64,000 nt of DNA from a bacterium (GCA_021784815.1 JAJYHK010000011.1:10954-74953); one strand, 5' to 3'; counted from the stretch's first letter, positions 1-28,425 are shown. Notes: generated by a model from the sequence alone, not told the origin. Translations and numbers: made by a program.

Positions 1-959
1 TCGAAGGGGTTTATGTGGTGTTCGCTCGAGAGCGAGATGTGGAAGGAGCGGCCGCCCGTAGCCTCGGCAAGCTGCTCGTACTCGCGCTCCGGGTCGATGA
101 CGATGACGTCAGTGCCGAACATGAGCGACCGGAGGATCTCGAGTTTTGTCGTATAGCTTTTTCCCGAGCCCGACTTCGCAAAGACGACCGAGTTGTAGTT
201 TTCGAGCGAAAACCGGTCGAAGAGGATGAGCGAAGAGTTGTGGCGGTTGATACCGTAGAGGATTCCCCGGTCGCTCGTGAGGTCGAAGGAGACGAACGGA
301 AAGATGGAGGAGAGAGGCGAAGAGTTGAGTTTGCTCGTCACAAGGAGCTCATCGGTGCCTAGAGGCAAGCAGGAGCGGAAGCCCTGTTCCTGCTGGAAGA
401 GCGCCGGCTTTGTGTAGACGAGCTTCGCATCGAGAATGCCGCGAATATTGCCCTCGAGCTTGTCAACCTCCTCTTTTGAGTCGCCGTAGAGCGCAAGGTA
501 GAGACCGACGTCGAAAAGCTTCTCCTGCGCTTGTTGAAGATCGTCGCGGAGCTTCTCGAGGTCTTGGTAGGCGGTATCGAGGAGCGGATCGCGCACCAGC
601 CCTTTCGATTCGCGTTCGGCAATCTGGCTCTGTACCTCCGCGACTTTCTTCTGAAATGCGCGCAGCGCCTGTTCCGTCTCGATCGGGTGGATGAAAATCG
701 AAGCGTCGAGTACCTGGTCGAGGTTGATGACGGGAGCGAACCACCCATCGGTGAGGTAGCGAGGGTACGAAATGGTATAGAACGCACGCACGAACTTCTC
801 GCCGAGCTCAAGCTCGCGCGGGCCAATTTTGAGCGCCGTCGGAGCGATCGTGTCGACCAGATCGAGCGAGCCGCGCTGGTAAATGTCCTTCGGCAAGACC
901 GGCACGAGCGCTGGTGCCTCTTCTTGCTTGCTGCGGGATAGGAAATCGAGGAGGGACAT
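1..959 (-). CDS. VirB4/TrbE-like conjugation/T4SS ATPase, ATPase-domain part (partial, continues beyond window start)
   Basis: Manual translation of the minus strand from ATG at 959-957 gives MSLLDFLSRSKQEEAPALVPVLPKDIYQRGSLDLVDTIAPTALKIGPRELELGEKFVRAF...VVFAKSGSGKSYTTK (Walker A) with no stops to the window edge. It is absent from the ORF track because the stop lies outside the window. It is in frame with the upstream 963..1604 ORF across a single TAA. Confidence 0.6.
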   Translation of the reverse strand, partial: MSLLDFLSRSKQEEAPALVPVLPKDIYQRGSLDLVDTIAPTALKIGPRELELGEKFVRAFYTISYPRYLTDGWFAPVINLDQVLDASIFIHPIETEQALRAFQKKVAEVQSQIAERESKGLVRDPLLDTAYQDLEKLRDDLQQAQEKLFDVGLYLALYGDSKEEVDKLEGNIRGILDAKLVYTKPALFQQEQGFRSCLPLGTDELLVTSKLNSSPLSSIFPFVSFDLTSDRGILYGINRHNSSLILFDRFSLENYNSVVFAKSGSGKSYTTKLEILRSLMFGTDVIVIDPEREYEQLAEATGGRSFHISLSSEHHINPF

Positions 960-962: not shown

Positions 963-1604
963 TTAGTTGTCGAGGCGAATAGGGTTCTCAAGCTCGCCAG
1001 GATTGAAGGAGCGGTAGAACAGCTCAATCGCTTCCTCGGTGCCGAGCGGGACCGCACGGACGCCCGTCCCCGCTAGGCCGCCGGCGACGAGCGCAAGCCG
1101 CTGTTCGAGCTGAGCCCGGTGTTCCTCGAAGGAAGCGGTGCCGCCCGTTGGTTGCGGGGCTTGAATACGGCGGAAAAACCCGGTTGCCGCCTGCGCGACT
1201 GCGAGGTGCGGCGCGTATGGGACGACAATGTAAAACGACTTCGTCATAATATTTGCCTGTTCGGCGAACGAACGAATGAATTCCATGTATTCGCGAAGCT
1301 GGAGGCGCAAGAGTTCAGTCTTCTGATCCGAGGCTTTCTTCTCGAGGAGCGCCAGGTACGGGCGCAGGTCCATCTTGCGCGAGTTGATCACGATCTGAAT
1401 GGAGAAATCGAGCGTATTGAGGAAATTTTGGAACCCTTCGGTGATCGCGCGCTGCTCATCCGCCGATTTAAGCGCGAAGTTGACTGAGGAGCACATAAGG
1501 ATGCCGCGATACGTGCCGTCCTTAAGCGCCACGACGCCGTTGCGGATTTCCTTGATCGGGACGAATTGCTGGGTCGCGCCCGGGGCAGAAGAAGAGGATG
1601 GCAT
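963..1604 (-). CDS. VirB4-like N-terminal domain fragment (PIKEIRNGVVALKDGTYRGILMCSSVNFALKS motif)
   Basis: 213-aa ORF. Its N-terminus matches the conserved start of Gram-positive-type VirB4/PrgJ/TcpF proteins. It ends at TAA 963-965, one codon before the ATG of the ATPase part. Confidence 0.55.
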   Translation of the reverse strand: MPSSSSAPGATQQFVPIKEIRNGVVALKDGTYRGILMCSSVNFALKSADEQRAITEGFQNFLNTLDFSIQIVINSRKMDLRPYLALLEKKASDQKTELLRLQLREYMEFIRSFAEQANIMTKSFYIVVPYAPHLAVAQAATGFFRRIQAPQPTGGTASFEEHRAQLEQRLALVAGGLAGTGVRAVPLGTEEAIELFYRSFNPGELENPIRLDN

Positions 1605-1609: not shown

Positions 1610-2047
1610 TTAGGATTCGCGGTCCTGAGCCTCTTCGGTATTGATATCGAGGGACCAGGCAAGCTCATTCAGTTTACCGCGTGTGAGGCGAGATCCCCGC
1701 GCACGCTCATCCACCCGTGCCGCGGCTTGTGTTGCTGCGACCGACGGCGGTTCGGGCCGCGCTTTCGGTTCCTCGTGCTTCCACAGGAAGAGTTTTGCAC
1801 CGGTGTAGTAATTAAAGCCGGCTTCGATCAGATCAATGAAAGGTTTCCCGTTCATTTTATAAAATGCGAGCGCGAGCGCGAAGCCGCCGAAGACTGCTAT
1901 AACCGGCAGCGAGAGGTAGAGCGGCAGGTAGACGAAGCCGGCGACGCTAATACCGCCGCCGCCCGCAAGGTAGATGAACTGCTTGAGGGTAAGCGGGCCG
2001 ACGACCTTGTTCTCCACCTCGATGAACTGCGGCACTTGGTACTCCAT
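1610..2047 (-). CDS. PrgI-like small T4SS membrane protein
   Basis: MEYQVPQFIEVENKVVGPLTLKQFIYL followed by two TM helices. This is the typical small protein encoded directly upstream of VirB4 in conjugation loci. Confidence 0.5.
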   Translation of the reverse strand: MEYQVPQFIEVENKVVGPLTLKQFIYLAGGGGISVAGFVYLPLYLSLPVIAVFGGFALALAFYKMNGKPFIDLIEAGFNYYTGAKLFLWKHEEPKARPEPPSVAATQAAARVDERARGSRLTRGKLNELAWSLDINTEEAQDRES

Positions 2048-3114: not shown

Positions 3115-3357
3115 ATGGCGCGAAAATGCGATATCACCGGTAAGACGACGCAGGTTGGCGGGCGCTACTCCAACCGCGTTCGTGCAACCCAGTTCAATCC
3201 GACTGGAAAGGTCCGCCGCAAGGCAAATCTACAAAGACGGCGTATTTACGTACCAGAACTGGAGAAAACCGTCATCCTCGACGTCTCAACCAAAGGGCTC
3301 AAGACCGTCAAAAAGGTCGGTGCGCATGCCGCCCTCAAGAAAGCTGGCCTCATCTAA
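3115..3357 (+). CDS. rpmB: 50S ribosomal protein L28
   Basis: MARKCDITGKTTQVGGRYSNRVRATQFNPTGKVRRKANLQRRRIYVPE resembles E. coli L28. ATG at 3115 checked in frame. Confidence 0.85.
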   Translation: MARKCDITGKTTQVGGRYSNRVRATQFNPTGKVRRKANLQRRRIYVPELEKTVILDVSTKGLKTVKKVGAHAALKKAGLI

Positions 3358-4039
3358 GGGTAGTAACCGTCCATCCATCAGAAACAACCGGTGGCGACGT
3401 GGAGGAGAGGAACAGTGCGCTTGCAAGGGCGCGTTGTTCCGTTTGGACGAGCCAGTTTCGGGTGCGCTTCGGAAGGTTCGGCTCAATTACAAATGAGGTG
3501 GAACCATACGAAATACGCGCAACGATGGTAGTACTCGGCCCTGTTCCGCGGGCTGCCTGAGCGTTTGGCCAGAGCACGTCCACAAATGCCCCGCTCCCAA
3601 GAGCGAGCCGCATTCCCTCTACAGCAGGGAGAACACGCGTCCCTTGCTTTTTGAGCGCCGCAGCGAGGGCCTGTTCCCTGGAGAATGAACCACGCGCCGC
3701 ACTTCGAATAAAGAGCGGGACGCGGTAGCGGTTGAGCACGGACGGGAGCCCCCCAGCGCTCTTCGCGCCCGGGTCCGTGAGCACGACCACGGCCAATGAC
3801 CGTTGCCAGGGTGGCAGTCGGGTGCCGAGCGCCCGCAGGATTGAAGCGTCGCTCCCGGCGTTAATGAGTAGGGTTGCGCCACTCGGGGCGCGGACCAGGT
3901 ACGCGGCGCCCTTTCCTGTCCGTAAGGGCTCGATGCGGAGCTCGAGTGCCACGGTGAGGCGTGCGTAGATCCAGACAGAGGCAATACCAAGTCCCACAAA
4001 ACTAGCCAGCAGAGTGCGCGTGCGTACGAGCGCCAGCAT
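3350..4039 (-). CDS. ComEC C-terminal metallo-beta-lactamase-like domain protein, degenerate (metal ligands lost)
   Basis: N-terminal TM helix then an MBL-like block order: LRTGKGAA where DVGQGD is expected, TDPGAKSAGG where THxDxDHxGG is expected, and ISYGSTSFVIEPNL. The ORF extends to 4138 but a Met is present at 4039. Confidence 0.4.
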   Translation of the reverse strand: MLALVRTRTLLASFVGLGIASVWIYARLTVALELRIEPLRTGKGAAYLVRAPSGATLLINAGSDASILRALGTRLPPWQRSLAVVVLTDPGAKSAGGLPSVLNRYRVPLFIRSAARGSFSREQALAAALKKQGTRVLPAVEGMRLALGSGAFVDVLWPNAQAARGTGPSTTIVARISYGSTSFVIEPNLPKRTRNWLVQTEQRALASALFLSSTSPPVVSDGWTVTTLR

Positions 4040-4112
4040 GTGCGTACTATACGACAGCGCCGCTCTCCTATTCACGCTTGACACAAGACCGCTCGTGGTA
4101 CAGTGAGGCTCT

Positions 4113-4703
4113 ATGTACGAAGCAAAAACCTTTTCCATTCCCGAGCTCGAGGGCCTTTCAAAGGAATCAATTGATCAGCATCTTGGGCTTTATCAGGGCT
4201 ACGTGAAAAACTTCAACGGCATGACCGAGCTTGCCGGCGAGCTTATGAAGGCTGATGCGCAGAAACATGCGCTTGCGATCGGCGAGCTCATGCGTCGCCG
4301 CTCTTTCGAGTTTGGCGGGATGCGCCTCCATGAGCACTACTTCCCCCAGTTTGAGGGCGGCAAAAAAGCGCTTGATGGTGGAAGTGCGCTCGGCAAAGCG
4401 CTTGCGGCGCAGTATGGCGATCCGGCACGCGCGGAGAAGGAGATGCGCATGGTGGCGAACCTGCGCGGTCCGGGCTGGGGCATTCTCTACTGGGATCCGG
4501 CTGCGAAACAGTTCCTTGTGGGCTTTACCGAAGAGCAGCATCAGGGCCACTTCGCGACCCTGCCGATCATCGTTGCGCTCGATGTGTGGGAACACGCATA
4601 CGTGCTCGACTACGGCGCTTTAGGCAAGGGCTCGTACGTTGACGCGTTCTTTGCCAACCTTAACTGGGGTGTTGCGGAGGAGCGGTTTGCGGCGCTTATG
4701 TAA
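4113..4703 (+). CDS. sod: Fe/Mn superoxide dismutase family protein
   Basis: DVWEHAYVLDY motif, LHEHYFPQF (His81 region), C-terminal ANLNWGVAEERF. The N-terminal HHxxHH motif is reduced to a single His. Confidence 0.8.
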   Translation: MYEAKTFSIPELEGLSKESIDQHLGLYQGYVKNFNGMTELAGELMKADAQKHALAIGELMRRRSFEFGGMRLHEHYFPQFEGGKKALDGGSALGKALAAQYGDPARAEKEMRMVANLRGPGWGILYWDPAAKQFLVGFTEEQHQGHFATLPIIVALDVWEHAYVLDYGALGKGSYVDAFFANLNWGVAEERFAALM

Positions 4704-6136
4704 AGCGCAAGGAGCGCGTAGGCGGCAAGGGTAAGCCAAAACGGAAAAGCCGGAAGAGAAAGCGCCGCGAGCTTTAGGCTTGCGGCGCTTTCCGCTATGC
4801 GAATAAGCCCATCGGTCAAAAGGTACGCCGGCAAGCCGGCAAGTATGGCAAGGAGGGGTGCGATTGAGCCGAAAAGCATTCCGGAAAAACCAGCGAGCGC
4901 GGAAAAGGCCATAGTCACCGGCACGAACGGCATGACGAGAAGGTTTACCGGAATGGCGACCAGCGAAAGATTGCCGGTGTCGTAGAGCAGAAGCGGAAGT
5001 ACGGCGATCTGCGCGGCGATGGTGGTGGCAATCGCGTTAGCCCAGAAGAACCCTATTCGCTTGCAAATAAATGTCTCGATATCCGGCGCGAGCCAAATGA
5101 GTCCGGCGGTCGCGGCGACTGAAAGACCGAAGCCCGGGTCGAATACCGCAAGAAGCGGATTCCAGAGCAGCATAAGCACGATTGCGAGCAAGAGCGCGCG
5201 ATTTGCCGCGTAGCTCTTCCCGGTTGCTCGCGCATAGAGCGCGATGCATGCCATGATGCCGGCGCGCACGGCGGTGGCGCTCGCGCCGGCGACGCCGATG
5301 AAGGCAATGAGCGCAAGCGCGCCAGCGAGCGCGCGGATGTGAAGCGACGCCTTTATATACGCGAGCGCCACCATGACCCACTCAGCGACGACCATGACGT
5401 TGTAGCCGGAGAGTACGATGATCTGCACGAGGCCGGTCCGGACGAATGCGTTTTGCAAATCACTGCCGAGGCCCGACTTGCCTCCGATGACGATGCCGCC
5501 GGCGAGCGAGGCATACGGCTCCGGAAGCGCTACATCGAGTCCGGAAAGGAATACATGTTTGACGCGCGCGAGAAGTGCAGAGACTGAATACCATGGCGCC
5601 GATGCGAGTGCGCGCACCGATGCGTAGTCGAGCACGAAGCGAATGCCCTCGCGCTCCAAATATTTGTCGTAGCGAAAGACGCGTCCGCCCGCGCTTGCAA
5701 ACGGCTGCGGCAATTCAAGCGTGCCGCGGATCGCGACGCGCTCTCCTACGGCAAGCGCCGTGTCGCGCGGCGTAACGGCAAGGACGAGAGAGTGCGCGCT
5801 CCCATACGCGACGCGCACGGGCACCCGCTGCAATCCATCGCGCACGTCCGGATCGCCGGTTATGACTCCGGTCAAGCGTGCGCGCGTGTGAAGCAGCGGT
5901 ACAAAGGCGCGAGGAAGCGGCGTGTCTATGAGCGCGGCGCGGCCCATGCCTATGAACACGCAGAAAAAGAAAATGGCCGCGAGGGCGTGCGCGCGTCGCG
6001 GCACGAAAAAGAAACCGAGAGCAAAAATGAGCGTGAGCAAAAACATAAACGCATACGCGCTCCATCCGAAAACGAAAAGCGAGCGAAGCACAACCCCGCC
6101 CGCGATTCCGATCGCAACGACGAGCAGGCCGCTCAT
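4610..6136 (-). CDS. comEC: ComEC/Rec2 DNA-uptake channel protein (DUF4131 plus competence domain; no attached MBL domain)
   Basis: About 10 TM helices and the FVRTGLVQIIVLSGYNVMVV competence-domain signature. The ORF extends to 6217; start chosen at MSGLLVVAIG (ATG 6136). The last ~30 codons overlap sod antisense. Confidence 0.7.
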   Translation of the reverse strand: MSGLLVVAIGIAGGVVLRSLFVFGWSAYAFMFLLTLIFALGFFFVPRRAHALAAIFFFCVFIGMGRAALIDTPLPRAFVPLLHTRARLTGVITGDPDVRDGLQRVPVRVAYGSAHSLVLAVTPRDTALAVGERVAIRGTLELPQPFASAGGRVFRYDKYLEREGIRFVLDYASVRALASAPWYSVSALLARVKHVFLSGLDVALPEPYASLAGGIVIGGKSGLGSDLQNAFVRTGLVQIIVLSGYNVMVVAEWVMVALAYIKASLHIRALAGALALIAFIGVAGASATAVRAGIMACIALYARATGKSYAANRALLLAIVLMLLWNPLLAVFDPGFGLSVAATAGLIWLAPDIETFICKRIGFFWANAIATTIAAQIAVLPLLLYDTGNLSLVAIPVNLLVMPFVPVTMAFSALAGFSGMLFGSIAPLLAILAGLPAYLLTDGLIRIAESAASLKLAALSLPAFPFWLTLAAYALLALYISAANRSSATPQLRLAKNASTYEPLPKAP

Positions 6137-6213
6137 GCGGCAAGGATAACAGGTTCGCCGGTGCCAAAGTCGGATTCGGGAACTCCGCCTGAACCGGGCG
6201 TCGGGACGAGGAG

Positions 6214-6633
6214 TCAATCCCCGCGGTCCATTGCTTGGTTCGCCAGAAGGTCGGCCTCTTTGTTCTGCGTGCGGAAGACGTGCTCGAACGAAATCGAACG
6301 GAAAGCTTTTTCAAGCCGAGCGAGCTGCGCCCGCTTCTCTTGCAGCACTGGATGCTTCACCTTGTATTCTCCTTTCACCTGCTTCACGATGAGCTCGCTG
6401 TCCATTTTTACCTGCACGTCGGCTCGCCCGCGTTCGGTCTCCGCAATAAGTTCGCGTAGTTTTGTGAGCGCGCGTATGACCGCTTCGTACTCGGCGAAAT
6501 TATTCGTTTGATGGCCGAGGTAGTCGCTCACCGTTGCGACGACGTTTCCCGCTTCGTCGTGAATGATTGCGCCGGCGCCTGCGGGTCCGGGATTGCCGCG
6601 CGCGCCGCCGTCGCTGTGGATGGTGTAACGCAT
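6214..6633 (-). CDS. rnhA: ribonuclease HI
   Basis: MRYTIHSDGGARGNPGPAGAGAII...NNFAEYEAVIRAL...NKEADLLANQA, classic RNase H fold motifs. Confidence 0.85.
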   Translation of the reverse strand: MRYTIHSDGGARGNPGPAGAGAIIHDEAGNVVATVSDYLGHQTNNFAEYEAVIRALTKLRELIAETERGRADVQVKMDSELIVKQVKGEYKVKHPVLQEKRAQLARLEKAFRSISFEHVFRTQNKEADLLANQAMDRGD

Positions 6634-6761: not shown

Positions 6762-8489
6762 TTATGCGCTGTCCGCCTTTGAAATCGCGACAAGCCGCAG
6801 GCGCACCGGGCGACCGCGAGAGAACCTGTCCCGCTCGAGGTGTGCGAGCACGTTGACCAGGCTTCCTTCGGCGATCGAGTCAATTGTGCGCGCGAGCGCG
6901 CCGCGCGCGAAAAATACGATGGCGTCGAGCGCGCTCGTTTCATCGCGTGCGAACGCGATCTTCCGATGCTCTTCCCCTTTGCCGAACCGCGAAACCGCGC
7001 GCACGCAAACGCCGTGCAGCCGCACGAGCGGTTTTTCATTGCCCATGCCAAACGGCCCGAGCCGCTCTAGCTTCCCGAGAAGCGCGTGCGTCGCTTCTTC
7101 CGGCGTGATTTCAAAATCGGCGCGTGCACTCGTGGGGTCGGTCGGGTCATCAACCGTGAGATGTGCGAGCGCAGAAGCAAGTCGTCCTTCGAGCGTAAAA
7201 ATTGCGTCTTCGTGCGCGGTGAAACCGCCCGAGGCAGCATGTCCGCCGAACTCGATAAAGGCGTCGCCCGCGATACGCATGAGCTCAAGCGCGTTCACGG
7301 CGCCGCTCCGCACCGATCCTTTGATCGACGCGTCGCCTTCCCTCCCCCATAGGAACACCGGGCGGTTGTACTCTTCAGCGATCGAATTGGCGACGAGCCC
7401 AAGAAGCGCGGGGCGCCACGAGGGATCGCCGAGCGCAATGACACTCGGCATCGCGCCGCGCGCCTTGAGACGCGCGTGCACTGCGCGCGTAATCGCGCCC
7501 GCTTCAGCTTTGCGCTGCCGGTTGAGCTTCTCGAGATGCTTGGCGAGCGCGTCAGCACGCACTTCGTCGCTGGTGGTGAAAAGATCGAACGCGCTCTTCG
7601 CGTCGCCCATGCGGCTCGCGGCATTCACGCGCGGCGCGAGCATAAAGCCGATGTCGTCTTCAGTGAGCGTCCGCTGATCACAACGCGCCACTCGACAGAG
7701 CTTTTGGAAACCGATGCGCGGCGACTTGCGCATGACGATGAGTCCATACGTAGCGAGCACGCGGTTTTCGTCGAGGAGCGGCACCATGTCCGCAATCGTT
7801 GCGAGCGCCACCATATCGAGCAGCCACTTCTCCCATCCTTCCGGTATGCGCGCGCGCAGCTCCGGCGAAACGGCGAGTGCCCCGCGCACGAGCTTCCATG
7901 CGACCCCCGAGCCGCACAGTCCTCGGAAGGGGTACGGTTCGTCGGCGCGCGCGTTCGGGTTCACGACCGCAAACGCCGGCGGCAACGTATCGCCGGGCAG
8001 GTGGTGGTCGGTCACGATGACTTCCATGCCGAGCTCGTTCGCGCGCGCGATTGGCGCGACATCGGTGATGCCCGAGTCGGCGGTGACGACGAGCGTAACG
8101 CCTTCGCGCGCGAGCGACTCGATGCCTTGCTCGTTCATGCCGTAGCCCTCGAGGTGGCGATGCGGAATGTACGTAGTAGAATCGGCACCGACCTTTTCAA
8201 GGAAGTCGTGCAATAAAGTGGCAGCCGGAATGCCGTCGCAATCGTAGTCGCTCCAAATCGCAACCTTTTCCCTCTTGAGAGCAGCGTGCGCGAATCGCTC
8301 GGCTGCCTTAGGCATGTCGGTCATGAGAAGCGGATCGTGGAGGTGCCGATCATAGGAAGGCGCAAGAAACGCCTCCGCCGCTTCGGCCGTCGTGATCCCG
8401 CGTCGAACAAGGAGCGCGGCAGTGACCTCGTCGTACGCGTGAAGGGCGCCGCGCGCATGTGTGCCGATCGGTTCACGGAGTTCAAACAT
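6762..8489 (-). CDS. recJ: single-stranded-DNA-specific exonuclease RecJ
   Basis: DHH motifs (DYDCDGI, VTDHHLPGD), DHHA1 and a C-terminal OB domain; 575 aa. Confidence 0.85.
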   Translation of the reverse strand: MFELREPIGTHARGALHAYDEVTAALLVRRGITTAEAAEAFLAPSYDRHLHDPLLMTDMPKAAERFAHAALKREKVAIWSDYDCDGIPAATLLHDFLEKVGADSTTYIPHRHLEGYGMNEQGIESLAREGVTLVVTADSGITDVAPIARANELGMEVIVTDHHLPGDTLPPAFAVVNPNARADEPYPFRGLCGSGVAWKLVRGALAVSPELRARIPEGWEKWLLDMVALATIADMVPLLDENRVLATYGLIVMRKSPRIGFQKLCRVARCDQRTLTEDDIGFMLAPRVNAASRMGDAKSAFDLFTTSDEVRADALAKHLEKLNRQRKAEAGAITRAVHARLKARGAMPSVIALGDPSWRPALLGLVANSIAEEYNRPVFLWGREGDASIKGSVRSGAVNALELMRIAGDAFIEFGGHAASGGFTAHEDAIFTLEGRLASALAHLTVDDPTDPTSARADFEITPEEATHALLGKLERLGPFGMGNEKPLVRLHGVCVRAVSRFGKGEEHRKIAFARDETSALDAIVFFARGALARTIDSIAEGSLVNVLAHLERDRFSRGRPVRLRLVAISKADSA

Positions 8490-10911: not shown

Positions 10912-12327
10912 CTACTCTTGTCGCCAGTCGACGAACTGCCACTGTGTCGAGGTGACGGGCGTAAAGGGGGGCGGATTCGTTGAATTTTGACGATCGAAGG
11001 CGGAGGTGCCATTCGAGTAGCCGGACCATCCGGAACAGCCGCCGCCGCCGCCGTACCACCAGTAGGTAATCGGCCGCATAGAAGAGACGATCGTACCGAG
11101 TATGTCGAGGGTCGACTTGCTGCCGTACGCGCTGCATGGGTACATGTTCATCCCGAACGCGCCCGATTGGGCGACAAATATGCCATCGAGGGTGAGGTCG
11201 GCGGGCGCCGTGGGATTAATGAGGACGCTGTGTGATGCGATTGCTGTGAGGCCTGAGGTGCCATCAAAGGCCGTGTAAGTGAGGTTGTTGGTGAGCTGAA
11301 TGTTCGGGTAGACGCCCGGTGTCGTCACGTTTGCGGCGACGACCGTCACTTTCCCCGAGATGGACCCCTCCATCCATACATTATCTTCGACAAAAATGAG
11401 GCCGCAGTTCGCCGGGATGGTGTAGGTGCCGAGCAGGGTTTCTGCGGTAATGAGCCCGTAGTCCTGCTTGTTATAGCCGTAAACCCCGTCAACGGGATAC
11501 GAGCGGATGCTCTTGCTCACGTCGGTCACCTTGTAGACGGTGACCGTGCCGTCGCCATTAAAGACGAGATGGTAGCCGAGATAGTACTGCTTCGAAGTCG
11601 AAATGCGCGGGAAGTAGAGTCCTTCGCTCTGGGCGACCGACTTAAGTGAGGAGAAGTTCGAGGCAATCGCGGCAAAATCGGTCTGCGGGGTCGGGTAGCT
11701 CCAGAGGTCTTGATTGGTACCGCTGCCGAAGACGCCCGGCTCGGTCTGGTTCCCTTGGCAGCCGTAGCTCGGATCGCAGGTCCATGTCGTAACCGAAGAG
11801 GTGACCGGCGCGTTTGGGTTGCCGTCCATGCGAATGCCACCGTTGCTGTGGACGGGCCCGTAAATAGGACCGCCCCCGAACCAGACGCTTGAATTGAGTA
11901 TCATGTTGTAGCGCGCGACCGAGGGCTGGGCGTAGCGCGCCCAGAGCGTCGCCGATACATTGGGAGCGTCGGCGGGGACGCCCTTGCTCGTCACGTCGAT
12001 TGACTGCACGGCATTGCATGCTTCGTTGCCGACGACCGAGAGCGTGTACGTGCCCGCGTTCTGCCCTTCTCCGTTCACATAGGGAACGATAAAGGGGCCG
12101 TTGTGGCCAGTGTGATCCTGGGTATCGCCCGGGTAGTGCGAGAGAAGCCAGCGGTAGTACTCGAGCCCGGCTTCCGCGATGTTAAACGCCTCGGATTGCG
12201 CGCGGACGAACTCCTGCGCGCGATTTTGCTCGAGCACGAATCCGGAGAGGCCGACAATCACCGCAAAAAAGACGGCGCCAAAAACGAGAACAAGCAGCAT
12301 GACAGAGCCTCCGCGATAGCGTTTCAT
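10912..12327 (-). CDS. PilX-N-like large pilus-associated protein (TM anchor plus Gly/Thr-rich secreted domain)
   Basis: N-terminus RGGSVMLLVLVFGAVFFAVIVGLSG resembles the PilX N-terminal domain. Last gene of the minus-strand pilus operon. Confidence 0.45.
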   Translation of the reverse strand: MKRYRGGSVMLLVLVFGAVFFAVIVGLSGFVLEQNRAQEFVRAQSEAFNIAEAGLEYYRWLLSHYPGDTQDHTGHNGPFIVPYVNGEGQNAGTYTLSVVGNEACNAVQSIDVTSKGVPADAPNVSATLWARYAQPSVARYNMILNSSVWFGGGPIYGPVHSNGGIRMDGNPNAPVTSSVTTWTCDPSYGCQGNQTEPGVFGSGTNQDLWSYPTPQTDFAAIASNFSSLKSVAQSEGLYFPRISTSKQYYLGYHLVFNGDGTVTVYKVTDVSKSIRSYPVDGVYGYNKQDYGLITAETLLGTYTIPANCGLIFVEDNVWMEGSISGKVTVVAANVTTPGVYPNIQLTNNLTYTAFDGTSGLTAIASHSVLINPTAPADLTLDGIFVAQSGAFGMNMYPCSAYGSKSTLDILGTIVSSMRPITYWWYGGGGGCSGWSGYSNGTSAFDRQNSTNPPPFTPVTSTQWQFVDWRQE

Positions 12328-12950
12328 AATTGCGCTTTGAGGTTACGGAGCGTCGCGCCCGCGGAGATCGTATAAGTGACGGGCGCGCGATTCACGTTGA
12401 CGTCAATCTGGAGCGTGGTTTCCACCGAGGCAATCCTGGATACGTTAATGGGTGCAGTGAGCTCGGTCCCGCTTGCGTCATAGAAGGTAAAGACGGGGGT
12501 CGATGTGCCATTGACCACCGAAGTCGCGATGGTTGAGGTTGCGGAGAGAGCACCCGCGTAGGTAGGAGGACTGCCTGCGGGTTCCGCGATGCCCCGATAG
12601 AGCGTGCCGCCGACGAGCTCGTAGGTAACGCGTTCGATTTCGGGCGAACTGTTGACGTTAGCGTAGAAGACGAGCGTTGACGTACCTGCGCTCCCGATCG
12701 GATAGGAACCATCGCTCCCATAGGATGCCTCGCGGAGATAGCGCATGGCGTCCTCGACGCCGCGCCGTCCTTGTTCTGAGGCAATGGACTGCTGAAGCGT
12801 GAAAGCATTCGTCTTATAGAAGTACACGATGAGCATACTGAGCGCGCCCATGACGAGCACGGTCATCGCGATGGTTACCATCATTTCAATAAGCGTAAAT
12901 CCGCGCGCCGGGCGGTCGGCATTCAGTCGGGCGGTCGGCGGACGGGTCAT
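12324..12950 (-). CDS. prepilin-type N-terminal cleavage/methylation domain protein (minor pilin/pseudopilin)
   Basis: ARGFTLIEMMVTIAM prepilin motif. ATG at 12950 forms an ATGA overlap with the upstream gene. Confidence 0.6.
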   Translation of the reverse strand: MTRPPTARLNADRPARGFTLIEMMVTIAMTVLVMGALSMLIVYFYKTNAFTLQQSIASEQGRRGVEDAMRYLREASYGSDGSYPIGSAGTSTLVFYANVNSSPEIERVTYELVGGTLYRGIAEPAGSPPTYAGALSATSTIATSVVNGTSTPVFTFYDASGTELTAPINVSRIASVETTLQIDVNVNRAPVTYTISAGATLRNLKAQL

Positions 12951-14683
12951 TGTAGGGAGAGAGAGACGGTTGTCGTCGCTTGCCCCGAAATAGGCAGGTT
13001 GAGGTCGCTCATGGTCGTATAGCCTGGTGCAGAGGTGACGAGCGAGTACGTGCCAGGAGCGATCGCGGCAAAATAGGCGACGCCGCATGCATCGGTCGGA
13101 AGCGCCGCGGCGAAGCTGGGACTGCTGAGGACGACCCGCGCGTTGCCGATGGCGCCACCCTGGGTGTTCATTACCGTGACGCCGAGCGAGGCGTTGCCGA
13201 GACTTCCTTGTACGAGCTTAGTCGACGTCGCCGAGCCCGGTGCCAGCTGGTACGGACCTGGTGGGCAGCTCTCGAGCACGGTCGTGCTTGCGGAGAGCGT
13301 GTAGGCGTCCCATTCGAGCGTCTCCGTTACAGATCCGGTCGATCCGGTTATACCCGTAACTTGGGTCTTGTACAGGGGTGCGCTGCTCGCGGTCGAACCG
13401 ATCGTCTTAGTGCCGGTGAGCAGGAAACGGCTGTTAGGAAAGGGTTCGGGCCCCTGCGTGTGCGAAAGCGACCAGGAGCGCAGGTCCGGATTTGTCGAGG
13501 TCGACGAGCGCGAGAGCGTTGCGGAAAGCGCGAGGGTCGGGTAGCTCGTCGTCGAAACGCCGATAAGCGAAACCGGGAAGGAGCTGAAGCCGGTGCTGTT
13601 CCCCGCGAGCACGGAATCCGGCAGCAGATTGCCGGAAGCGTCAAGTACCCGGACAACGACGCTCGCGCCGCTCGGCGTCGAAAGCGAGGCGTTCAAGAGC
13701 CCCCAACTATCGAGGTAGCTCGGCGAAATGGGTATGGACTGAACGGAACCGGACAGGGCGCCTGATGCGAGCTGTACGGAACCGTCGGATACGATCGCGT
13801 TCTTTTCGCCGGCAAGGTTCGCCGTGCTCGCGAAGCTGTCGGAAAAAACGGTGGTCGTCGCCGGCGAGAACGAAGAGATAATAAGGGTCGCGAGCCGGTC
13901 AATCGCGAACGTGCTCGTCGTCGTTTGATCCTGACGCACCGTGAGAAATCCCGGCGTCGGGTTGACGTTAATCGCGGTCCGCGGGTAGGTTTGTGCGCTC
14001 GAGTCGCCCGATTTCGACACATATATTTGGTAATCCGGGGAGCTCGTGGCGCCGCCGATCGATACCATACCGCTGCTGTCGGTAAGCGTGGTGAAGTCGA
14101 TAGCCGGCGAGGTCGATGCGTTCACGATCCGGACGCTCGCGCCGCTCACCGCGTTGTCGGAGGCGTCGACAACGTGGATGTCGAGCGTGCCTCCCGCGGT
14201 GTTGCTTTCAATCCCAGGCGGCGCAAAGTTCGATGCGAGCGTCACTAAGCGCGGGAACCCGCCGGCGGCGTAGGAAACCGATACGACCGCCTTCTTGTAG
14301 TCGGTCGTGATGCCGTTTGTGTCGGCGGTCCCCGTTCCGTCGGCGGGATCGTCGTAGTAATCAATAAAGGTATGTACGACATAGGGCGCGCCGTCTACGG
14401 TCGAGGTGGCGTACTGCGGAACGAATCCTGAAGGGATGCCGCCCTGCGTGCCGAGCGCCTCGTAATTAAGGCCACGGAGGTACTCCATCTGGGTATTCGC
14501 AACCTCGACTGCGGTCGCTTCGGCCTGGTCAATGGCGGAGAGCGAGAGCGAGGCGCGCAGGGCGCCGAAGAGCGCGAGGAAGACGACAAGGAGAAGAGCG
14601 CTGCCCACGAGGACGTCGATGAGCGTCATGCCCGACGCGATCGGTGCCCGCCCTCCTCGCTGCCGTTCTCTCGAGAGGCTCAT
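12947..14683 (-). CDS. large pseudopilin-like protein (prepilin-like N-terminus plus about 540-aa Ser/Thr-rich beta-rich domain)
   Basis: Leader MSLSRERQRGGRAPIASG then MTLIDVLVGSALLLVVFLALFGAL (class III signal-like); 578 aa. Confidence 0.55.
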   Translation of the reverse strand: MSLSRERQRGGRAPIASGMTLIDVLVGSALLLVVFLALFGALRASLSLSAIDQAEATAVEVANTQMEYLRGLNYEALGTQGGIPSGFVPQYATSTVDGAPYVVHTFIDYYDDPADGTGTADTNGITTDYKKAVVSVSYAAGGFPRLVTLASNFAPPGIESNTAGGTLDIHVVDASDNAVSGASVRIVNASTSPAIDFTTLTDSSGMVSIGGATSSPDYQIYVSKSGDSSAQTYPRTAINVNPTPGFLTVRQDQTTTSTFAIDRLATLIISSFSPATTTVFSDSFASTANLAGEKNAIVSDGSVQLASGALSGSVQSIPISPSYLDSWGLLNASLSTPSGASVVVRVLDASGNLLPDSVLAGNSTGFSSFPVSLIGVSTTSYPTLALSATLSRSSTSTNPDLRSWSLSHTQGPEPFPNSRFLLTGTKTIGSTASSAPLYKTQVTGITGSTGSVTETLEWDAYTLSASTTVLESCPPGPYQLAPGSATSTKLVQGSLGNASLGVTVMNTQGGAIGNARVVLSSPSFAAALPTDACGVAYFAAIAPGTYSLVTSAPGYTTMSDLNLPISGQATTTVSLSLQ

Positions 14684-15892
14684 TTAAAACGCCGAAGAGA
14701 GCTGGTAAATAGGCGCGATCATCGCAACCGCGAAGATGCCGACCATGGTGCCGATGAAGAGCATGAGGAGCGGCTCGATAATGGTCGAGAGGTCCTTCGT
14801 CTTTTCGGCGACGTCATTCTCGTAAAATTCGGCGATCTGTCCGAGCATCTGGGCAACCTTTCCGGTCTCCTCACCGACCGAGAGCATGTCGCTCATGAGG
14901 AGCGGGTACACGTTTGGATGCGCCGCAAATGCGCTCGAGAGCGGCTCGCCCTTGCGCACCCCGGTCTCCGCTTCCTCGATGATGTTCGCAAAGAGCGGCG
15001 CGTGAACGACCGCTTTGGTGATCGAGAGCGCCTCAAGTACCGGCACGCCGGCGGAGAGGAGCGAAGAGAGCGTGCGCGCGGCGCGCGCGGCGTAGGTCTC
15101 GCGAACGAGTTCGCCGATTGCCGGCATGAGAAGCGATGCTCTGAGGACGAGCGCGCTGCCGCGCGCCGAACGTATGAACGCGATACCGCCGCCCACGACG
15201 CCAACGAGAACGAGGAGCGTGAGGGCAACGTTGTTTATGAGCATGTTCGAAATGGCGACGATGACGCGGGTTGCCAAGGGCACCTTTACATGAAGCGAGA
15301 CAAAGGTCTTTGTGAGCACCGGTACGACGTACATGAGCATCAAGATAGCGATAATGATGACCGCAGAAATCACGATGGAGGGATAAATCATCGCGCCCTT
15401 TACCTTACGGATGAGCTCGGACGTATGCTCCATCTGGATACCGACCGTGTTGAGCGCCTCGGCGAGGCTTCCCGACTCCTCGCCCGCTTGTGCCATGGAA
15501 ATGAAGAGCGGCGGGAACACCTTCGGGTACTGCGCGAGCGCCTCATGAAAACTCGAGCCTTTTTCGACCGTTTGAGCGAGGTGCGCGGTTACTTCTGCCA
15601 TTTTACGCTTGCCGGACTGGCGCTGAATGACCGCGAGCGAGCGCGAGAGCGAGAGGCCGGCTGAGAGCATGGCGGAGAGATTCTTCGCCATGCGGATGAC
15701 TTCGGCGTTTTTCACGCCCGTACCGAGCGTCGCATGGAGGAGTGAGGACAGTTTAGTCGCGTTGCTTTCGGTGAGCCCGACGACCGTGCCGCCGTCCTTT
15801 TGAACTTGTTCGTACACCGCAAAACGCGAGGGCGCGTCGATCGTACGCGTCTCTTCCCCGCCGCTCGTGCGAACCGTCACGCGGAACCTCAT
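14684..15892 (-). CDS. pilC: type IV pilus assembly platform protein PilC (GspF family)
   Basis: Two T2SS-F domains with three TM helices. ATG at 15892 (MRFRVTV...) checked. Confidence 0.85.
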   Translation of the reverse strand: MRFRVTVRTSGGEETRTIDAPSRFAVYEQVQKDGGTVVGLTESNATKLSSLLHATLGTGVKNAEVIRMAKNLSAMLSAGLSLSRSLAVIQRQSGKRKMAEVTAHLAQTVEKGSSFHEALAQYPKVFPPLFISMAQAGEESGSLAEALNTVGIQMEHTSELIRKVKGAMIYPSIVISAVIIIAILMLMYVVPVLTKTFVSLHVKVPLATRVIVAISNMLINNVALTLLVLVGVVGGGIAFIRSARGSALVLRASLLMPAIGELVRETYAARAARTLSSLLSAGVPVLEALSITKAVVHAPLFANIIEEAETGVRKGEPLSSAFAAHPNVYPLLMSDMLSVGEETGKVAQMLGQIAEFYENDVAEKTKDLSTIIEPLLMLFIGTMVGIFAVAMIAPIYQLSSAF

Positions 15893-16084
15893 TTCAATGG
15901 TAGCGTAGCATGCGCATGCGCGCGTAGCGCGCGTTATAAAGAGATACGCGACGGCCGCAAGCCGCCGCGCAGTCTTCTTCCCATCGCCTTTTGTTGCACC
16001 TCCCGCTTCAATCCGCAAAACCATGCTTGCGCGTTCAAGCGGGGCGGAAACGGACGATTCGATAGGTCGTCCGTTGCCCCGAGT

Positions 16085-16409: not shown

Positions 16410-18158
16410 CTATTCCGAAACGGCACGGAGCACCTCTTCGACCGAGGTGATGCCGCGCGCCGCTTTGTAGAGGCCGTCTTCAAACATGGTGAGCATGCTC
16501 TCTCTGCGCGCCTGGTCCTCAATAGCATCAGTCGTCATCTGGTGGAGCATGATTTCCTTGATCGCCGGCGATACGGCGAGGACCTCGTGGATGCCAATGC
16601 GGCCCTTGTAGCCGTCCGCGCACTCGGCGGATTCCTTAGGATGATAAAACGGCACGTCATCAATGGCGGTCCCTTTTTTGACGAGCTTCTCTTCGGTGAG
16701 CGCGTTCAGGACCGTATCAAACGATTCTTTTGGGGCGATCTTGTCGCGCTCGCTAGCGTCGAGCGCGTACTGTTCTTTACCATCACAGAATTTACGCACG
16801 AGGCGTTGGCCGACAATGATGCGGATGGTCGACGCGAGGAGGAACGGCTCGACGCCCATATCGATGAGACGCGGAATCGCGCCGGCGGCACTGTTCGTGT
16901 GGATAGTCGAGAGCACGAGGTGGCCGGTGAGTGCGGCGTTGATGGCGAGCGAGGCGGTCTCGTTATCGCGGATTTCGCCGACCATGATGATGTCCGGATC
17001 CTGGCGCACGAGGGAGCGCAGGCCTTCCGCGAAAGTAAAGCCGATCGCGGGATTTACCTGGGTTTGGTTCACGCGCTTCATTTGGTACTCGATCGGATCC
17101 TCGATCGTAGAGATGTTCACGTCGGGAGTATTCACGATGTCCATCATTGTGTAGAGGGTCGTCGTTTTGCCCGAACCGGTCGGCCCCGAAATGAGAATGA
17201 TACCGGTCGTCGTCTTGAGCGCGGCATGGATCCGTTCAAGCGTCTCGCCATGGAAGCCGAGCGCCTCAAGCGTGAAGCCGCCCCCTCCCTCGCGCAAAAG
17301 GCGCATAACGATCTTCTCGCCATAGAAGGTGGGGAGGATGGAAACGCGAAAGGAGACGCGCTCGGCTTCCGTCTCCATCTTGAAGCGGCCGTCTTGCGGC
17401 AGCCGCTTTTCGTCGAGCTTGAGGTCGGAAAGCACCTTAATGCGCGCGACGATCGCCGGAGCCGCGATCTTCGGCAGAGTCATCGCGTCGTGGAGCATGC
17501 CGTCGATGCGGTAGCGTACGAGCACCTGCCCTTCCATGGGCTCAATGTGGACGTCGGAAGCGCCCTGCACGATGGCATGGCGCAGGAGCGAGTCGACAAT
17601 ACGCACGATCGGCAGATCGTCCGCCATTTTCTTGAGATCCTCGTGTGACATCTCTCTGTTCGTTTCGTTCACGACGCGAATCTTGCCCGTCTCAGTTGCG
17701 ATAATATCGCCGAACTCGTCTTTGAGCGATTTTTGGTACTGGAGGAGCGCGACCTTGATGCTCTCGGTATCGGTGAGGCGCGGCTGAATCTTGAGGCCGG
17801 TTTTCTTGCGGACCGAGTCGATCGAGGCGAGATCGTCGACGTCCAGCATGGCGACCTCGAGCGATTCCCCACTTTTTCGAAACGCGATGATGTTGTGCGT
17901 GCGTGCGATCGGTTCGGGGATGAGCACGAGCACATCGGTCGGAATGCGCTGGTCTTTGAGGCTCACGAACGGGATGCCAAGCACATACGCCTGAATACGG
18001 CGCAGCGCGTCCTCGCTCAGGGCGCCTCGATTCACGAGGATGGTGCCCAAGGGCGCGCCGCTCTTTTTCGATTCGGCATCGGCGTCCTCGACGTCCTTGC
18101 GGGAAACGAGTCCCGAGTCAATAATAAATTCTTTGAGCTCCCCCGGTGAAACGTGCAT
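16410..18158 (-). CDS. pilB: type IV pilus assembly ATPase PilB (GspE family)
   Basis: Walker A GPTGSGKTTTLY, Asp box, His box, N-terminal T2SSE_N domain. ATG at 18158 checked. Confidence 0.9.
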   Translation of the reverse strand: MHVSPGELKEFIIDSGLVSRKDVEDADAESKKSGAPLGTILVNRGALSEDALRRIQAYVLGIPFVSLKDQRIPTDVLVLIPEPIARTHNIIAFRKSGESLEVAMLDVDDLASIDSVRKKTGLKIQPRLTDTESIKVALLQYQKSLKDEFGDIIATETGKIRVVNETNREMSHEDLKKMADDLPIVRIVDSLLRHAIVQGASDVHIEPMEGQVLVRYRIDGMLHDAMTLPKIAAPAIVARIKVLSDLKLDEKRLPQDGRFKMETEAERVSFRVSILPTFYGEKIVMRLLREGGGGFTLEALGFHGETLERIHAALKTTTGIILISGPTGSGKTTTLYTMMDIVNTPDVNISTIEDPIEYQMKRVNQTQVNPAIGFTFAEGLRSLVRQDPDIIMVGEIRDNETASLAINAALTGHLVLSTIHTNSAAGAIPRLIDMGVEPFLLASTIRIIVGQRLVRKFCDGKEQYALDASERDKIAPKESFDTVLNALTEEKLVKKGTAIDDVPFYHPKESAECADGYKGRIGIHEVLAVSPAIKEIMLHQMTTDAIEDQARRESMLTMFEDGLYKAARGITSVEEVLRAVSE

Positions 18159-18421
18159 CGTATACGAAGTATACCGAGAGTTACGCGCGGGCACTGTGTA
18201 TGTACACACATTACGCTGCATGCGTGTGAAGGCATGCTAATGAGCGCGTACCAGCCTGTGCGCCACCACCATTGACGAAGCGAGATAATGCTGGTACCTT
18301 GTGGTCAACTGGAAGACCCGCCCCGCGGGCTTTCTTTTACCCAGCACAAAAGAACCGGCGCGTCCGGTTACAATCACAGGAGTGCTGGCTTTATAAAACG
18401 TGCGCCACATACACATCCCAT

Positions 18422-27592: not shown

Positions 27593-28141
27593 TTATTCAG
27601 GCAATATCATCATATTGCCGTATGGGTCTCCCGGCGTTGCTTCGCCCCAGTTCATGCCCGACCAGCACGCCGGCTGCGCGTACGGAGAATTCGCCGGCCG
27701 CGGTTCTTCGGTGTCCCAATACAAGACCGCGTACGTGCCGCTCGGCGAACCGCAGGTTGCTGGTCCTCCGGTAAAATTTACATAACGGAACGTGCAGCCG
27801 CTGAGCGTCGTCTCAACCGGAACCTGACTTATATAACCTCCTGTCTGCAGCGCAGAGAGCCAACTGTACCCGCTACCAGAATTACCCGATTGCCAATTCC
27901 ACCAGCAGCCGCTGCCGCCTCCCGATTGATTCAAGTACGGATACTGGCCGTTATGATCGTTCGCATACATTTCAAGAGCGGTGCGTATGCTCTGAATGTC
28001 GGAAATGCGCGCCGCATCGCGCGCTTTACTACGCGCGGTACTTAAGCTCGCAAGTATGATGCTTGAGAGAACCCCAATAATCGCAATGACCACCAAGAGT
28101 TCGATTAGGGTAAACCCGCGATACGAACGTGCACGCCTCAT
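27593..28141 (-). CDS. pilA: type IVa major pilin (PilA-like)
   Basis: MRRARSYRG|FTLIELLVVIAIIGVLSSIILASLSTARSKARDAARISDIQSIRTALEMY. ATG at 28141. Cys residues for a C-terminal disulfide are present. Confidence 0.8.
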   Translation of the reverse strand: MRRARSYRGFTLIELLVVIAIIGVLSSIILASLSTARSKARDAARISDIQSIRTALEMYANDHNGQYPYLNQSGGGSGCWWNWQSGNSGSGYSWLSALQTGGYISQVPVETTLSGCTFRYVNFTGGPATCGSPSGTYAVLYWDTEEPRPANSPYAQPACWSGMNWGEATPGDPYGNMMILPE

Positions 28142-28425
28142 TGTGTTTGCTGGCCTGGGATACGATCTGTTTGGGAGAAATTTTTTACGATTTGTCCTGA
28201 CGAAGTACCAAGTAACATCGGCACGGCAAACGCAAGAATGATCGCGCCAACGGCAATGCCAATGAGCACGCGTGTCGCACCCTTTTCGTCCTTCGCCAAT
28301 CCCCATCCGATAACGAGCTTCGCCATGCCGCGGGACTCGCTCGTCACTCCCCGTCGAGGCGTATATTGTTCCTCCTCCTGAAATTGAATGCCACTACCGC
28401 CTGCGCCTAAGTCCATATGCTTCAT
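28138..28425 (-). CDS. hypothetical small membrane protein upstream of pilin
   Basis: 95-aa ORF with one TM helix. Its stop overlaps the pilin start. No clear RBS. Confidence 0.3.
   Translation of the reverse strand: MKHMDLGAGGSGIQFQEEEQYTPRRGVTSESRGMAKLVIGWGLAKDEKGATRVLIGIAVGAIILAFAVPMLLGTSSGQIVKNFSQTDRIPGQQTQ

Follow-up and report, generated by a model that had tools for sequence, protein, structure and literature searches.

CPR/Patescibacteria cannot synthesize nucleotides and are believed to subsist on imported DNA, and ComEC is among their most widespread membrane proteins. Canonical ComEC/Rec2 proteins (B. subtilis, Moorella glycerini 9ic4/30bt, L. pneumophila) have three modules, in the order OB fold, competence channel, and transmembrane (TM) helix plus MBL-fold domain. 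The catalytic residues of M. glycerini ComEC are H598, D600, D602, H603, D700, and H725 (PMC12455585), and the loop-2 'pin' of the ComEC MBL domain is essential for transformation in L. pneumophila. In S. pneumoniae, the MBL domain of ComEC is full length and inactive, and the strand is degraded by EndA (PMC5031224, Baker et al., 2016; PMC12455585, Stedman et al., 2025). H. pylori ComEC has no MBL domain, and H. pylori has neither EndA nor a close relative of the MBL domain elsewhere in its genome (PMC5031224). ComEC with a 'DC' profile (DUF4131 plus Competence) has been described, and a ComEC-MBL fusion has been reported as absent in CPR (Pimentel and Zhang, 2018, PMC6299819; Meheust et al., 2019, PMC6744442). 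No description of a split or pseudo-enzyme ComEC partner in CPR was found in the literature.

The window analyzed here, a 64-kb stretch of bacterial DNA, carries comEC as two genes on the same strand with a sod gene between them on the other. Comparison of this locus with its relatives suggests that the ComEC nuclease domain has not been lost but moved onto a neighboring gene, where it appears intact in many lineages and a pseudo-enzyme in one clade. The features are the following.

3115..3357, plus strand: rpmB, ribosomal protein L28 (Pfam Ribosomal_L28, 8.9e-13)
3350..4039, minus strand: stand-alone ComEC C-terminal half, 229 aa, one TM helix and a degenerate MBL-fold domain (the MBL-like gene)
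4040..4112: divergent spacer of 73 nt from the sod start to the MBL-like start
4113..4703, plus strand: sod, Fe/Mn superoxide dismutase (SOD), 196 aa, complete, antisense to both comEC halves
4610..4703: convergent 3' overlap of comEC and sod, 94 nt, by direct reading
4610..6136, minus strand: comEC channel gene, 508 aa, OB fold (DUF4131) and Competence transmembrane domain, without an MBL domain
6214..6633, minus strand: RNase H-like gene (Pfam), upstream of comEC on the same strand
6762..8489, minus strand: recJ (Pfam), upstream of comEC on the same strand

The channel ORF, identical in sequence to database protein P0031, matches Competence (PF03772; E=1.2e-41, 143 bits against a cutoff of 23) and DUF4131 (PF13567; E=9.4e-15, 55 bits against a cutoff of 31.6) in Pfam, and TIGR00360 in NCBIfam (E=2.9e-16). 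Lactamase_B has no Pfam match in it, in agreement with a preliminary description of the locus, and TIGR00361 reaches 53.6 bits, below its cutoff of 190. The ORF aligns with residues 146-483 of the solved M. glycerini ComEC (30bt_A, E=1.1e-13) and also with 9vc6_A; its product would thus be an OB fold and a membrane channel. Read mechanically, it extends to a TTG at 6217, and homologue N-termini back the start at 6136. The ORF stops after the final channel helix, and its C-terminus is a basic tail of about 30 codons written antisense to sod. Among the best 120 of 956 channel homologues, all 120 contain DUF4131 and Competence only. Genes for PilB, PilC, and pilins (type IV pilus) lie 5-12 kb from comEC in the window.

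The MBL-like ORF, identical to P0001, is matched by no Pfam or NCBIfam model, including the Pfam MBL models; its homology was therefore assessed through PDB sequence and profile searches, structure prediction, and hhalign. A phmmer search retrieves the ComEC beta-lactamase-like domain 9ic4_A (E=3.8e-4). A profile of the family, built without any intact member, matches 9ic4_A at about 4e-10 and residues 511-702 of 30bt_A at E=3.7e-10, a region that takes in the TM helix preceding the MBL domain, with the next non-ComEC MBL at 0.2. In the AF2 model of the 229-aa protein (pLDDT 90.1), a helix spans residues 2-28 and leads into an alpha-beta/beta-alpha sandwich. Foldseek ranks the ComEC BLACT domain 9ic4 first for this model (E=6.7e-13, compared with roughly 1e-7 for other MBLs), and among 219 PDB matches at E<=1e-3 the best 50 are all MBL-fold proteins. 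Dead and intact stand-alone MBL families align in hhalign with a probability of 100% (E=1.9e-40). The profile match to 30bt_A, the model, and the Foldseek result thus uphold the earlier reading of this ORF as a TM helix plus an MBL-like domain, and its product would correspond to the last TM helix and the beta-lactamase-like nuclease domain of fused ComEC.

This domain had also been described as having every metal-binding motif substituted, and the 9ic4_A alignment bears this out: DVGQGD is replaced by RTGKGA, THPDADHIGG by TDPGAKSAGG, and SAD by EPN, and HHGS (H725) is deleted. At the M. glycerini positions H598/D600/D602/H603/D700/H725, the window protein has D, G, K, S, N, and a deletion. 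Among the best 150 family matches, the approximately 130 members that lack motif 2 contain no metal-binding motifs, and residues aligned to the metal ligands vary throughout the dead family. The conserved NxY/FGHP loop, whose N248, H252, and P253 are invariant in the intact family, has no counterpart, and the C-terminal region is shortened relative to that family. Because the loop-2 pin, mapped only approximately onto the NxY/FGHP motif by residue offset, has no counterpart, the canonical non-catalytic role appears to be gone as well. The fold is nonetheless complete and confidently predicted in the 229-aa form, and a few Asp and Arg residues (D64, R69, R80, and R104) are invariant in the dead family, as would be expected if the protein were still a hydrolase acting through a non-canonical residue set. 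This is highly improbable, however, given that all metal-ligand positions are variable in the family, that the invariant residues also occur in the intact family, away from its catalytic motifs, and that the second half of the active-site cleft is missing from short forms. Together with the Competence domain of 4610..6136, these residue losses agree with the first interpretation of a catalytically dead MBL half beside a retained channel.

At least 110 clusters (50% identity) match the MBL-like gene at E<1e-30. The MBL-like half is under purifying selection, with dN/dS values of 0.37 (dS 0.29) and 0.25, against 0.04-0.16 for its neighbors (0.04-0.08 for sod). It evolves 2-8 times faster than these neighbors and is shortened to about 150-175 aa in most clade members; thus, its role may be weak or fading. 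A vestige without ComEC function, either drifting to loss or co-opted for an unrelated task (e.g., co-regulated with sod out of the divergent spacer common to both), would account for the highest dN/dS of the block, the progressive shortening, and the joint loss of catalytic residues and loop 2. It would also fit the tight sod/MBL-like pairing, which holds (15-90 nt) also in L003/L018, where comEC has been displaced by 2.2 kb. Yet more than 100 divergent clusters preserve the ORF intact, its dN/dS is well under 1, and its TM anchor is kept. Moreover, the residues conserved in the dead family are the non-catalytic ones also conserved in the intact family, and each of three independent sod losses left the MBL-like gene abutting comEC once more or fused with it. 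A vestige is therefore rather unlikely, and the dead half probably serves the channel as a non-catalytic accessory subunit, a function proposed by inference.

The complete sod gene noted earlier on the opposite strand of the gap is confirmed by an end-to-end alignment of SOD residues 9-192 with residues 18-204 of the Fe-SOD 1wb8_A (E=9.8e-25), in which the four metal ligands are kept (H of 'IDQH', H of 'RLHEH', and D and H of 'DVWEH'). In Pfam, Sod_Fe_C matches at 8.7e-18, and the N-domain alone falls below its cutoff (13.8 against 27 bits). Of the overlaps with both comEC halves that had been claimed for sod, the 94 nt shared with the channel gene stand, whereas the MBL-like gene is separated from sod by the 73-nt spacer. 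An overlap on that side arises only with an ATG start at 4138, which has no homologue support, and is therefore not supported; homologues and gene callers use 4039. The corresponding spacer measures 15-30 nt in many relatives. A TATAGT lies 6 nt ahead of the MBL-like ATG and is a putative promoter element, an assignment made by inference; the 4040..4112 spacer has no match to the sigma-70 consensus. Across 3200-6400, a promoter scan gave 0 promoter-like sites, and a terminator scan gave 4 terminator-like sites against 4.7 expected.

Within the 4610-4703 overlap, the ComEC tail reads ...SSATPQLRLAKNASTYEPLPKAP on the strand antisense to SOD ...YVDAFFANLNWGVAEERFAALM, with the two frames sharing their third codon positions. 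The tail motif SKRFSTTxQLRxAKxAS faces the canonical C-terminus of SOD. In the dead-MBL clade, 27 relatives keep an overlap of 64-94 nt; where relatives have an intact MBL, the comEC and sod 3' ends overlap by 4-56 nt only or leave a gap, and the nearest intact-MBL outgroup has an overlap of 8 nt. Thus, both frames are open, the overlap is conserved in many lineages, and one frame appears to be younger than the other, as is characteristic of overprinting.

The gene order RecJ-RNaseH-ComEC> <SOD MBL> <L28 M50> recurs in 27 of 31 informative GTDB species loci. rpmB belongs to this conserved block; it is convergent with the MBL-like gene, and their 3' ends overlap by 8 nt (3350-3357). The RNase H-like gene and recJ adjoin comEC in about 30 genomes as well as in distant intact-MBL loci. 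Among more distant relatives, 16-17 metagenome loci share the comEC> <sod MBL> layout with intact DVGQGD/HxDxDH/HHG motifs. Another 15 loci have sod-less split pairs, either abutting or with a 4-nt overlap, whose MBL motifs are intact, and nine genes encode fused ComEC of approximately 800 aa. The suggestion that the arrangement is ancient is therefore borne out by synteny. Because the layout is ancient and common to many relatives, ultra-small Kaiserbacteria-type bacteria such as this one do not simply lack the nuclease domain of ComEC. The source of the window is a metagenome-assembled contig, which could raise the question of an assembly or annotation artefact or of a recent rearrangement private to one genome. 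An identical copy on a second contig from a sequencing run (L001) and independent assembly of the arrangement across dozens of MAGs and metagenomes, produced in separate studies, refute this explanation, leaving it a negligible probability.

The two halves bear the marks of gene fission: they are same-strand neighbors, they align to complementary, non-overlapping parts of M. glycerini ComEC (146-483 for the channel ORF and 511-702 for the MBL-like family), and both fused and split relatives exist. In a neighbor-joining (NJ) tree of the channel part, dead and intact lineages form a bipartition with 100/100 bootstrap support, and sod occupies the gap in both L055 and L060, the closest intact lineages. 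With this tree rooted on the fused forms, which is an assumption, and with many internal nodes below 50, the sod-less abutting intact pairs fall outside the sod-containing group. The preliminary description had proposed, as one possibility, that sod was inserted into a fused comEC and thereby created the split. The precise placement of sod at the domain boundary and the age of the arrangement are in keeping with such an origin. However, the sod-less abutting intact pairs are frequent (15 loci) and branch outside the sod-containing group, in intact-MBL relatives sod keeps ends of its own (a gap to comEC or an overlap of only 4-8 nt with it), and no inverted or direct repeats lie beside it. Insertion of sod was thus probably not the cause of the split, an origin to which only a small probability is assigned; rather, sod was most likely inserted between genes that were already separate. 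The absence of inverted repeats beside sod likewise speaks against the inversion offered as another cause of the split. A mobile-element origin was also considered and rejected, as the flanks hold no inverted or direct repeats beyond chance-sized ones and no composition break.

The most parsimonious order of events is therefore fission, then sod insertion, and finally catalytic decay, once only, in the Kaiserbacteria-like clade. A fused ComEC of approximately 800 aa would first have undergone fission into two abutting genes. A functional Fe/Mn sod would then have lodged antisense between the halves in the ancestor of a large Paceibacteria-type group, when the MBL half was presumably still catalytically intact. 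Catalytic decay was a separate, later event, because the comEC> <sod MBL> layout occurs with intact motifs. On the Kaiserbacteria-like stem, the MBL half would have lost all metal ligands and the NxY/FGHP loop, and the ComEC ORF would have gained 64-94 nt by overprinting, on the strand opposite the sod 3' end. Later, sod would have been lost at least three times, leaving abutting genes again and, in one genome, an in-frame re-fusion.

Relatives without sod in the gap illustrate this last step. In L033, a single MAG, the halves are fused in one ORF of the dead form, and the linker carries 'IEAFFANLNWDVAEKRFDEAM*' antisense, a remnant of the sod 3' end. L026 and L031 are sod-less pairs with a 4-nt overlap (ATGA), and in the sod-less L019 the two comEC ORFs overlap by 43 nt. 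No sod remnants were found in these three pairs, so secondary sod loss is read there only from tree position. An AF2 model of the natural fusion P0298 was too poor for docking (pLDDT 66.9, pTM 0.50, channel 50-70), and Foldseek matched only its MBL part. It was built from alignment A7, the usable one, as MAFFT misplaced MBL-like rows whenever more than three channel-only rows were included.

Taken as a whole, an anciently split comEC with this history, whose dead half serves as a non-catalytic accessory subunit of the channel, is the likely explanation of the locus. The dead half would still be made, with its domain on the outward-facing side of the membrane as in fused ComEC. The non-imported strand, if degraded, would be handled by another nuclease, as by EndA in S. 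pneumoniae. Among 40 proteins scanned in the 64-kb window, there is no EndA-like nuclease (Endonuclease_1/NS family); a cytoplasmic-type Exo_endo_phos protein (35461..36252) is the only nuclease candidate found, and seven of the scanned ORFs have no family match. More broadly, and quite tentatively, ComEC might be a two-gene machine in a large part of CPR, its MBL subunit often accompanied by an antisense sod. Kaiserbacteria-like members might then use a conserved pseudo-nuclease for gating or DNA docking at the channel, with no ComEC-borne nuclease in uptake, and the conserved comEC/sod overlap may couple uptake and oxidative-stress expression via transcriptional interference.

These observations have several implications. 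Scoring of DNA uptake in CPR genomes should change, because per-protein domain profiles miss a separate MBL gene. The natural series of fused, split, split with an intruding gene, dead, and re-fused forms offers a probe of the non-catalytic role of the ComEC MBL domain, a question already posed by the inactive pneumococcal domain. Additionally, a ComEC tail on the sod antisense strand, reused as the linker of a re-fused protein, would be a clean, datable example of overprinting.

Compared with H. pylori, the window likewise has a channel without a ComEC-borne nuclease, which is known to function in H. pylori and is seen here as genes only; unlike H. pylori, the window genome keeps a relative of the ComEC MBL domain. 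The parallel with S. pneumoniae is a catalytically dead ComEC-type MBL domain kept in a DNA-uptake system, for which reason the nuclease step would have to be outsourced. The pneumococcal domain has its full length, retains 2 of 7 ligand positions, and forms one protein with the channel, whereas the dead domain here is a separate gene product, shortened, with no ligands kept, and no EndA-like gene lies within the 64-kb window, which covers part of the genome. The window channel gene itself has a typical DC profile, as do its best 120 of 956 homologues. In contrast to the DC reading, the MBL domain persists as a neighboring gene, intact in many relatives and degenerate in the clade; it was read as absent in the earlier surveys (PMC6299819; PMC6744442) because domains were scored per protein. 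Relative to canonical ComEC/Rec2, the three modules occur here in the same order but on two polypeptides with an antisense gene between them, and neither H598/D600/D602/H603/D700/H725 nor the loop-2 pin is left in the MBL module. Further counterparts are the intact stand-alone TM+MBL genes beside comEC (e.g., L041, L043, and L063), which share the architecture and the place downstream of comEC and, in many cases, the antisense sod. Unlike the window gene, they keep DVGQGD, HxDxDH, and HHG and encode proteins of approximately 280-300 aa.

The two comEC-derived ORFs of the window flank sod, and all three genes lie where the preliminary description placed them:
4610..6136, minus strand: comEC channel gene, 508 aa, same sequence as database protein P0031
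3350..4039, minus strand: MBL-like gene, 229 aa, same sequence as database protein P0001
4113..4703, plus strand: sod, full-length match to Fe-SODs of the archaeal/Aquifex type (1wb8_A, E=9.8e-25)
4610-4703: convergent comEC/sod overlap, 94 nt

As the preliminary description proposed, the channel ORF carries the Competence (E=1.2e-41) and DUF4131 (E=9.4e-15) domains and no lactamase domain detectable by Pfam. It scores 53.6 bits against the NCBIfam full-length ComEC equivalog, far under the cutoff of 190, and aligns with residues 146-483 of full-length Moorella glycerini ComEC (30bt_A). A database search with the MBL-like protein returned 29 homologues of 150-239 aa, all of them stand-alone and all missing the metal motifs. 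The profile built from these 29 dead sequences, which includes no intact MBL member, matches 30bt_A (E=3.7e-10) and the solved ComEC BLACT domain 9ic4_A (4.5e-10), with the next MBL at 0.2. It covers ComEC residues 511-563 (the TM helix and first strands) and 589-702. The two ORFs map to successive regions of the same chain and are thus complementary parts of a single ComEC.

The structural comparison points to the same ComEC-type MBL fold. The AF2 model of the MBL-like protein (pLDDT 90.1, pTM 0.83) places an MBL-type sandwich after an N-terminal helix that spans residues 2-28, and its best Foldseek match is 9ic4 (E=6.7e-13, TM 0.64), with other MBL nucleases at about 1e-7. Alignment to 9ic4_A shows exactly the motif substitutions listed earlier: DVGQGD to RTGKGA, THPDADHIGG to TDPGAKSAGG, and SAD to EPN. 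Of the experimentally determined M. glycerini catalytic residues (PMC12455585), H598, D600, D602, H603, and D700 are replaced in the window protein by D, G, K, S, and N, respectively, and H725 is deleted. The NxY/FGHP loop, invariant among intact relatives, has no counterpart in it. By residue offset, this loop corresponds approximately to the ‘loop 2’ pin, which Legionella pneumophila requires for transformation.

By dN/dS, the MBL-like gene is under purifying selection, with a constraint two- to eightfold weaker than that on its neighbours. In the comparison with the close relative L122 (dS 0.29), the MBL-like gene has a dN/dS of 0.37 and L28 one of 0.11. With L002, where dS is near saturation, the MBL-like gene reaches 0.25 and ComEC 0.16; M50 is at 0.10, RNase H at 0.09, SOD and RecJ at 0.08 each, and L28 at 0.05. 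The invariant residues of the dead family (D64, R69, R80, G97, R104, and Y105) fall within the motifs GSDASILRALG, PxWQR, and RYRV and are inherited from conserved non-catalytic positions of the intact family. Divergence between the window and L122, its closest relative, is mosaic across 3350-4400: pS is 0.63 in sod and 0.24-0.27 in the MBL-like gene and L28, and DNA identity in the TM-helix segment (3941-4000) is 57%. Recombination may account for this pattern.

The intervening sod is complete, as first described, with all four metal ligands (His, His, Asp, His) present in the alignment to Fe-SODs. It was also said to overlap both comEC halves, which holds for the channel gene but not for the MBL-like gene. 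The latter could reach sod only from an upstream ATG at 4138; all homologues and gene callers use the start at 4039, which leaves a 73-nt divergent spacer (4040-4112). TATAGT lies 6 nt upstream of the MBL-like ATG, and in many relatives the divergent start codons are about 15-30 nt apart (e.g., CAT-AGGATAAAATCTATC-ATG; L021, ~6959-6980). The short spacer and TATAGT suggest back-to-back promoters and leaderless mRNAs, with no promoter found in this region by consensus scan. The whole block is extremely compact, and the convergent MBL-like and rpmB (L28) genes share 8 nt (3350-3357).

The comEC reading frame of the dead clade covers 64-94 nt of the sod 3’ end on the opposite strand. Among intact relatives, the 3’-end overlap is only 4-56 nt, or a gap lies between the two genes. 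The extension gives ComEC a tail, SKRFSTTxQLRxAKxAS, whose conservation stems from mirroring the canonical SOD C-terminus, (D/E)AFFANLNWxVxEKRF; the two frames share their third codon positions. In L003/L018 (same contig, JAHFML010000001.1), comEC and sod lie 2.2 kb apart, with genes for an M23 peptidase and a hypothetical protein inserted between them. ComEC still ends in SKRFSTTLQLRFAKK there; the overprinted tail has persisted beyond the loss of the overlap. In L006/L037 (same contig, CAZPXA010000031.1), a single 21-nt deletion within the overlap costs SOD the residues ‘ANLNWGV’ and the ComEC tail the residues ‘STTPQLR’, and SOD may be damaged.

The gene order RecJ-RNaseH-ComEC> <SOD MBL-like> <L28 M50> is conserved across 32 GTDB species genomes with the dead form, whose labels include Kaiserbacteria, Adlerbacteria, and Paceibacterota, and the proposed synteny check found sod in the gap at 27 of 31 informative loci. 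An exhaustive HMM search, counted in clusters at 50% identity, recovered at least 110 clusters at E<1e-30 and 3328 at E<=1e-10. The best 150 matches form a continuum from fused ComEC (817 aa, motifs intact) through stand-alone TM+MBL proteins (~280-300 aa, DVGQGD/HxDxDH/HHG intact) and full-length proteins whose motifs are partly or wholly lost to window-like dead forms (~230 aa) and truncated dead forms (~150-175 aa). Dead and intact stand-alone families align with 100% probability (hhalign, E=1.9e-40). Several stand-alone full-length proteins of ~250-290 aa (P0210, P0213, P0226, P0236, P0242, P0263, and others) have partly lost the motifs, for example retaining DVGNGD without HxDxDH. They look like intermediate decay stages, possibly in other lineages.

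Scanning metagenomes with intact stand-alone proteins as seeds gave 80 loci of more distant relatives, among them 9 with fused comEC, 15 with abutting split pairs, whose stop/start overlap is often 4 nt (e.g., L041), and 16-17 with comEC> <sod MBL>, intact catalytic motifs, and the same RecJ/RNaseH and L28/M50 flanks. In an NJ tree of the channel part, with weakly supported internal nodes and a root assumed among fused forms, dead-form and intact-form loci separate fully (100/100 bootstrap). Both L055 and L060, the intact lineages closest to the dead clade, carry sod in the gap; fused and abutting forms are more distant. The most parsimonious order is fission, sod insertion between two separate genes, and a single catalytic decay. 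One preliminary suggestion was that an ancient insertion or inversion split comEC; in this order, the split precedes the sod insertion. Overall, the preliminary observations stand except for the one overlap detail, and the interpretation stands in part.

Re-fusion is seen in one relative. L033 (MAG nzgw457) encodes channel and dead MBL domain in a single 661-aa ORF (deposited as P0298, 660 aa), the only fused form among the matches listed. Its linker carries the same ComEC tail and reads antisense as IEAFFANLNWDVAEKRFDEAM*, the stump of a deleted sod, so this fusion is secondary. In the sod-less L019, L026, and L031, the ORFs overlap by 43 nt (L019) or 4 nt (ATGA; L026 and L031). These loci nest inside sod-containing lineages in the NJ tree, and no sod stump was found in them.

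The window also contains type IV pilus genes close to comEC and a T4SS-like trio:
16410..18221, minus strand: PilB-like ATPase
14684..16024, minus strand: PilC-like platform protein
12324..13088 and 27593..28306, minus strand: two N-methyl pilins
1610..2047, 963..1604, and 1..959, minus strand (window 1-2047): T4SS-like trio of PrgI-like, TraC-like, and VirB4/TraG-like ATPase genes

The type IV pilus genes (10912-18221 and 27593-28306, minus strand) and comEC would together make a DNA-uptake neighbourhood. The T4SS-like trio comes after M50, a position conserved in all Kaiserbacteria-type loci examined. Mobile-element genes (serine recombinase, tyrosine integrase, IS1595 transposase, and P63C-domain protein) and a run of Pfam-less ORFs occupy 28616-29941, 36670-37590, 57428-59238, and 47456-57055; the run, ~10 kb with seven ORFs, gave no Pfam matches.

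With a basic ComEC tail followed by the TM helix, the MBL-like domain should lie on the outer side of the membrane, like its counterpart in fused ComEC, and the protein is proposed to persist as an accessory channel subunit without catalytic activity. The AF2 model of the natural fusion P0298, built from the single usable alignment, is poor (pLDDT 66.9, pTM 0.50). No EndA-like nuclease was detected in the 64-kb window, itself only a part of the genome. A literature search found no published description of a separately encoded MBL partner, an antisense sod, or a pseudo-nuclease clade. ComEC proteins with the DC profile are common (PMC6299819), and the ComEC-MBL fusion is reported to be essentially absent from CPR (PMC6744442). 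In Streptococcus pneumoniae, the ComEC MBL domain is full-length but inactive and the strand is degraded by EndA (PMC5031224; PMC12455585), a precedent for a retained inactive MBL domain. The split comEC locus with its dead MBL half is a variant of a known system and not a new kind of system.
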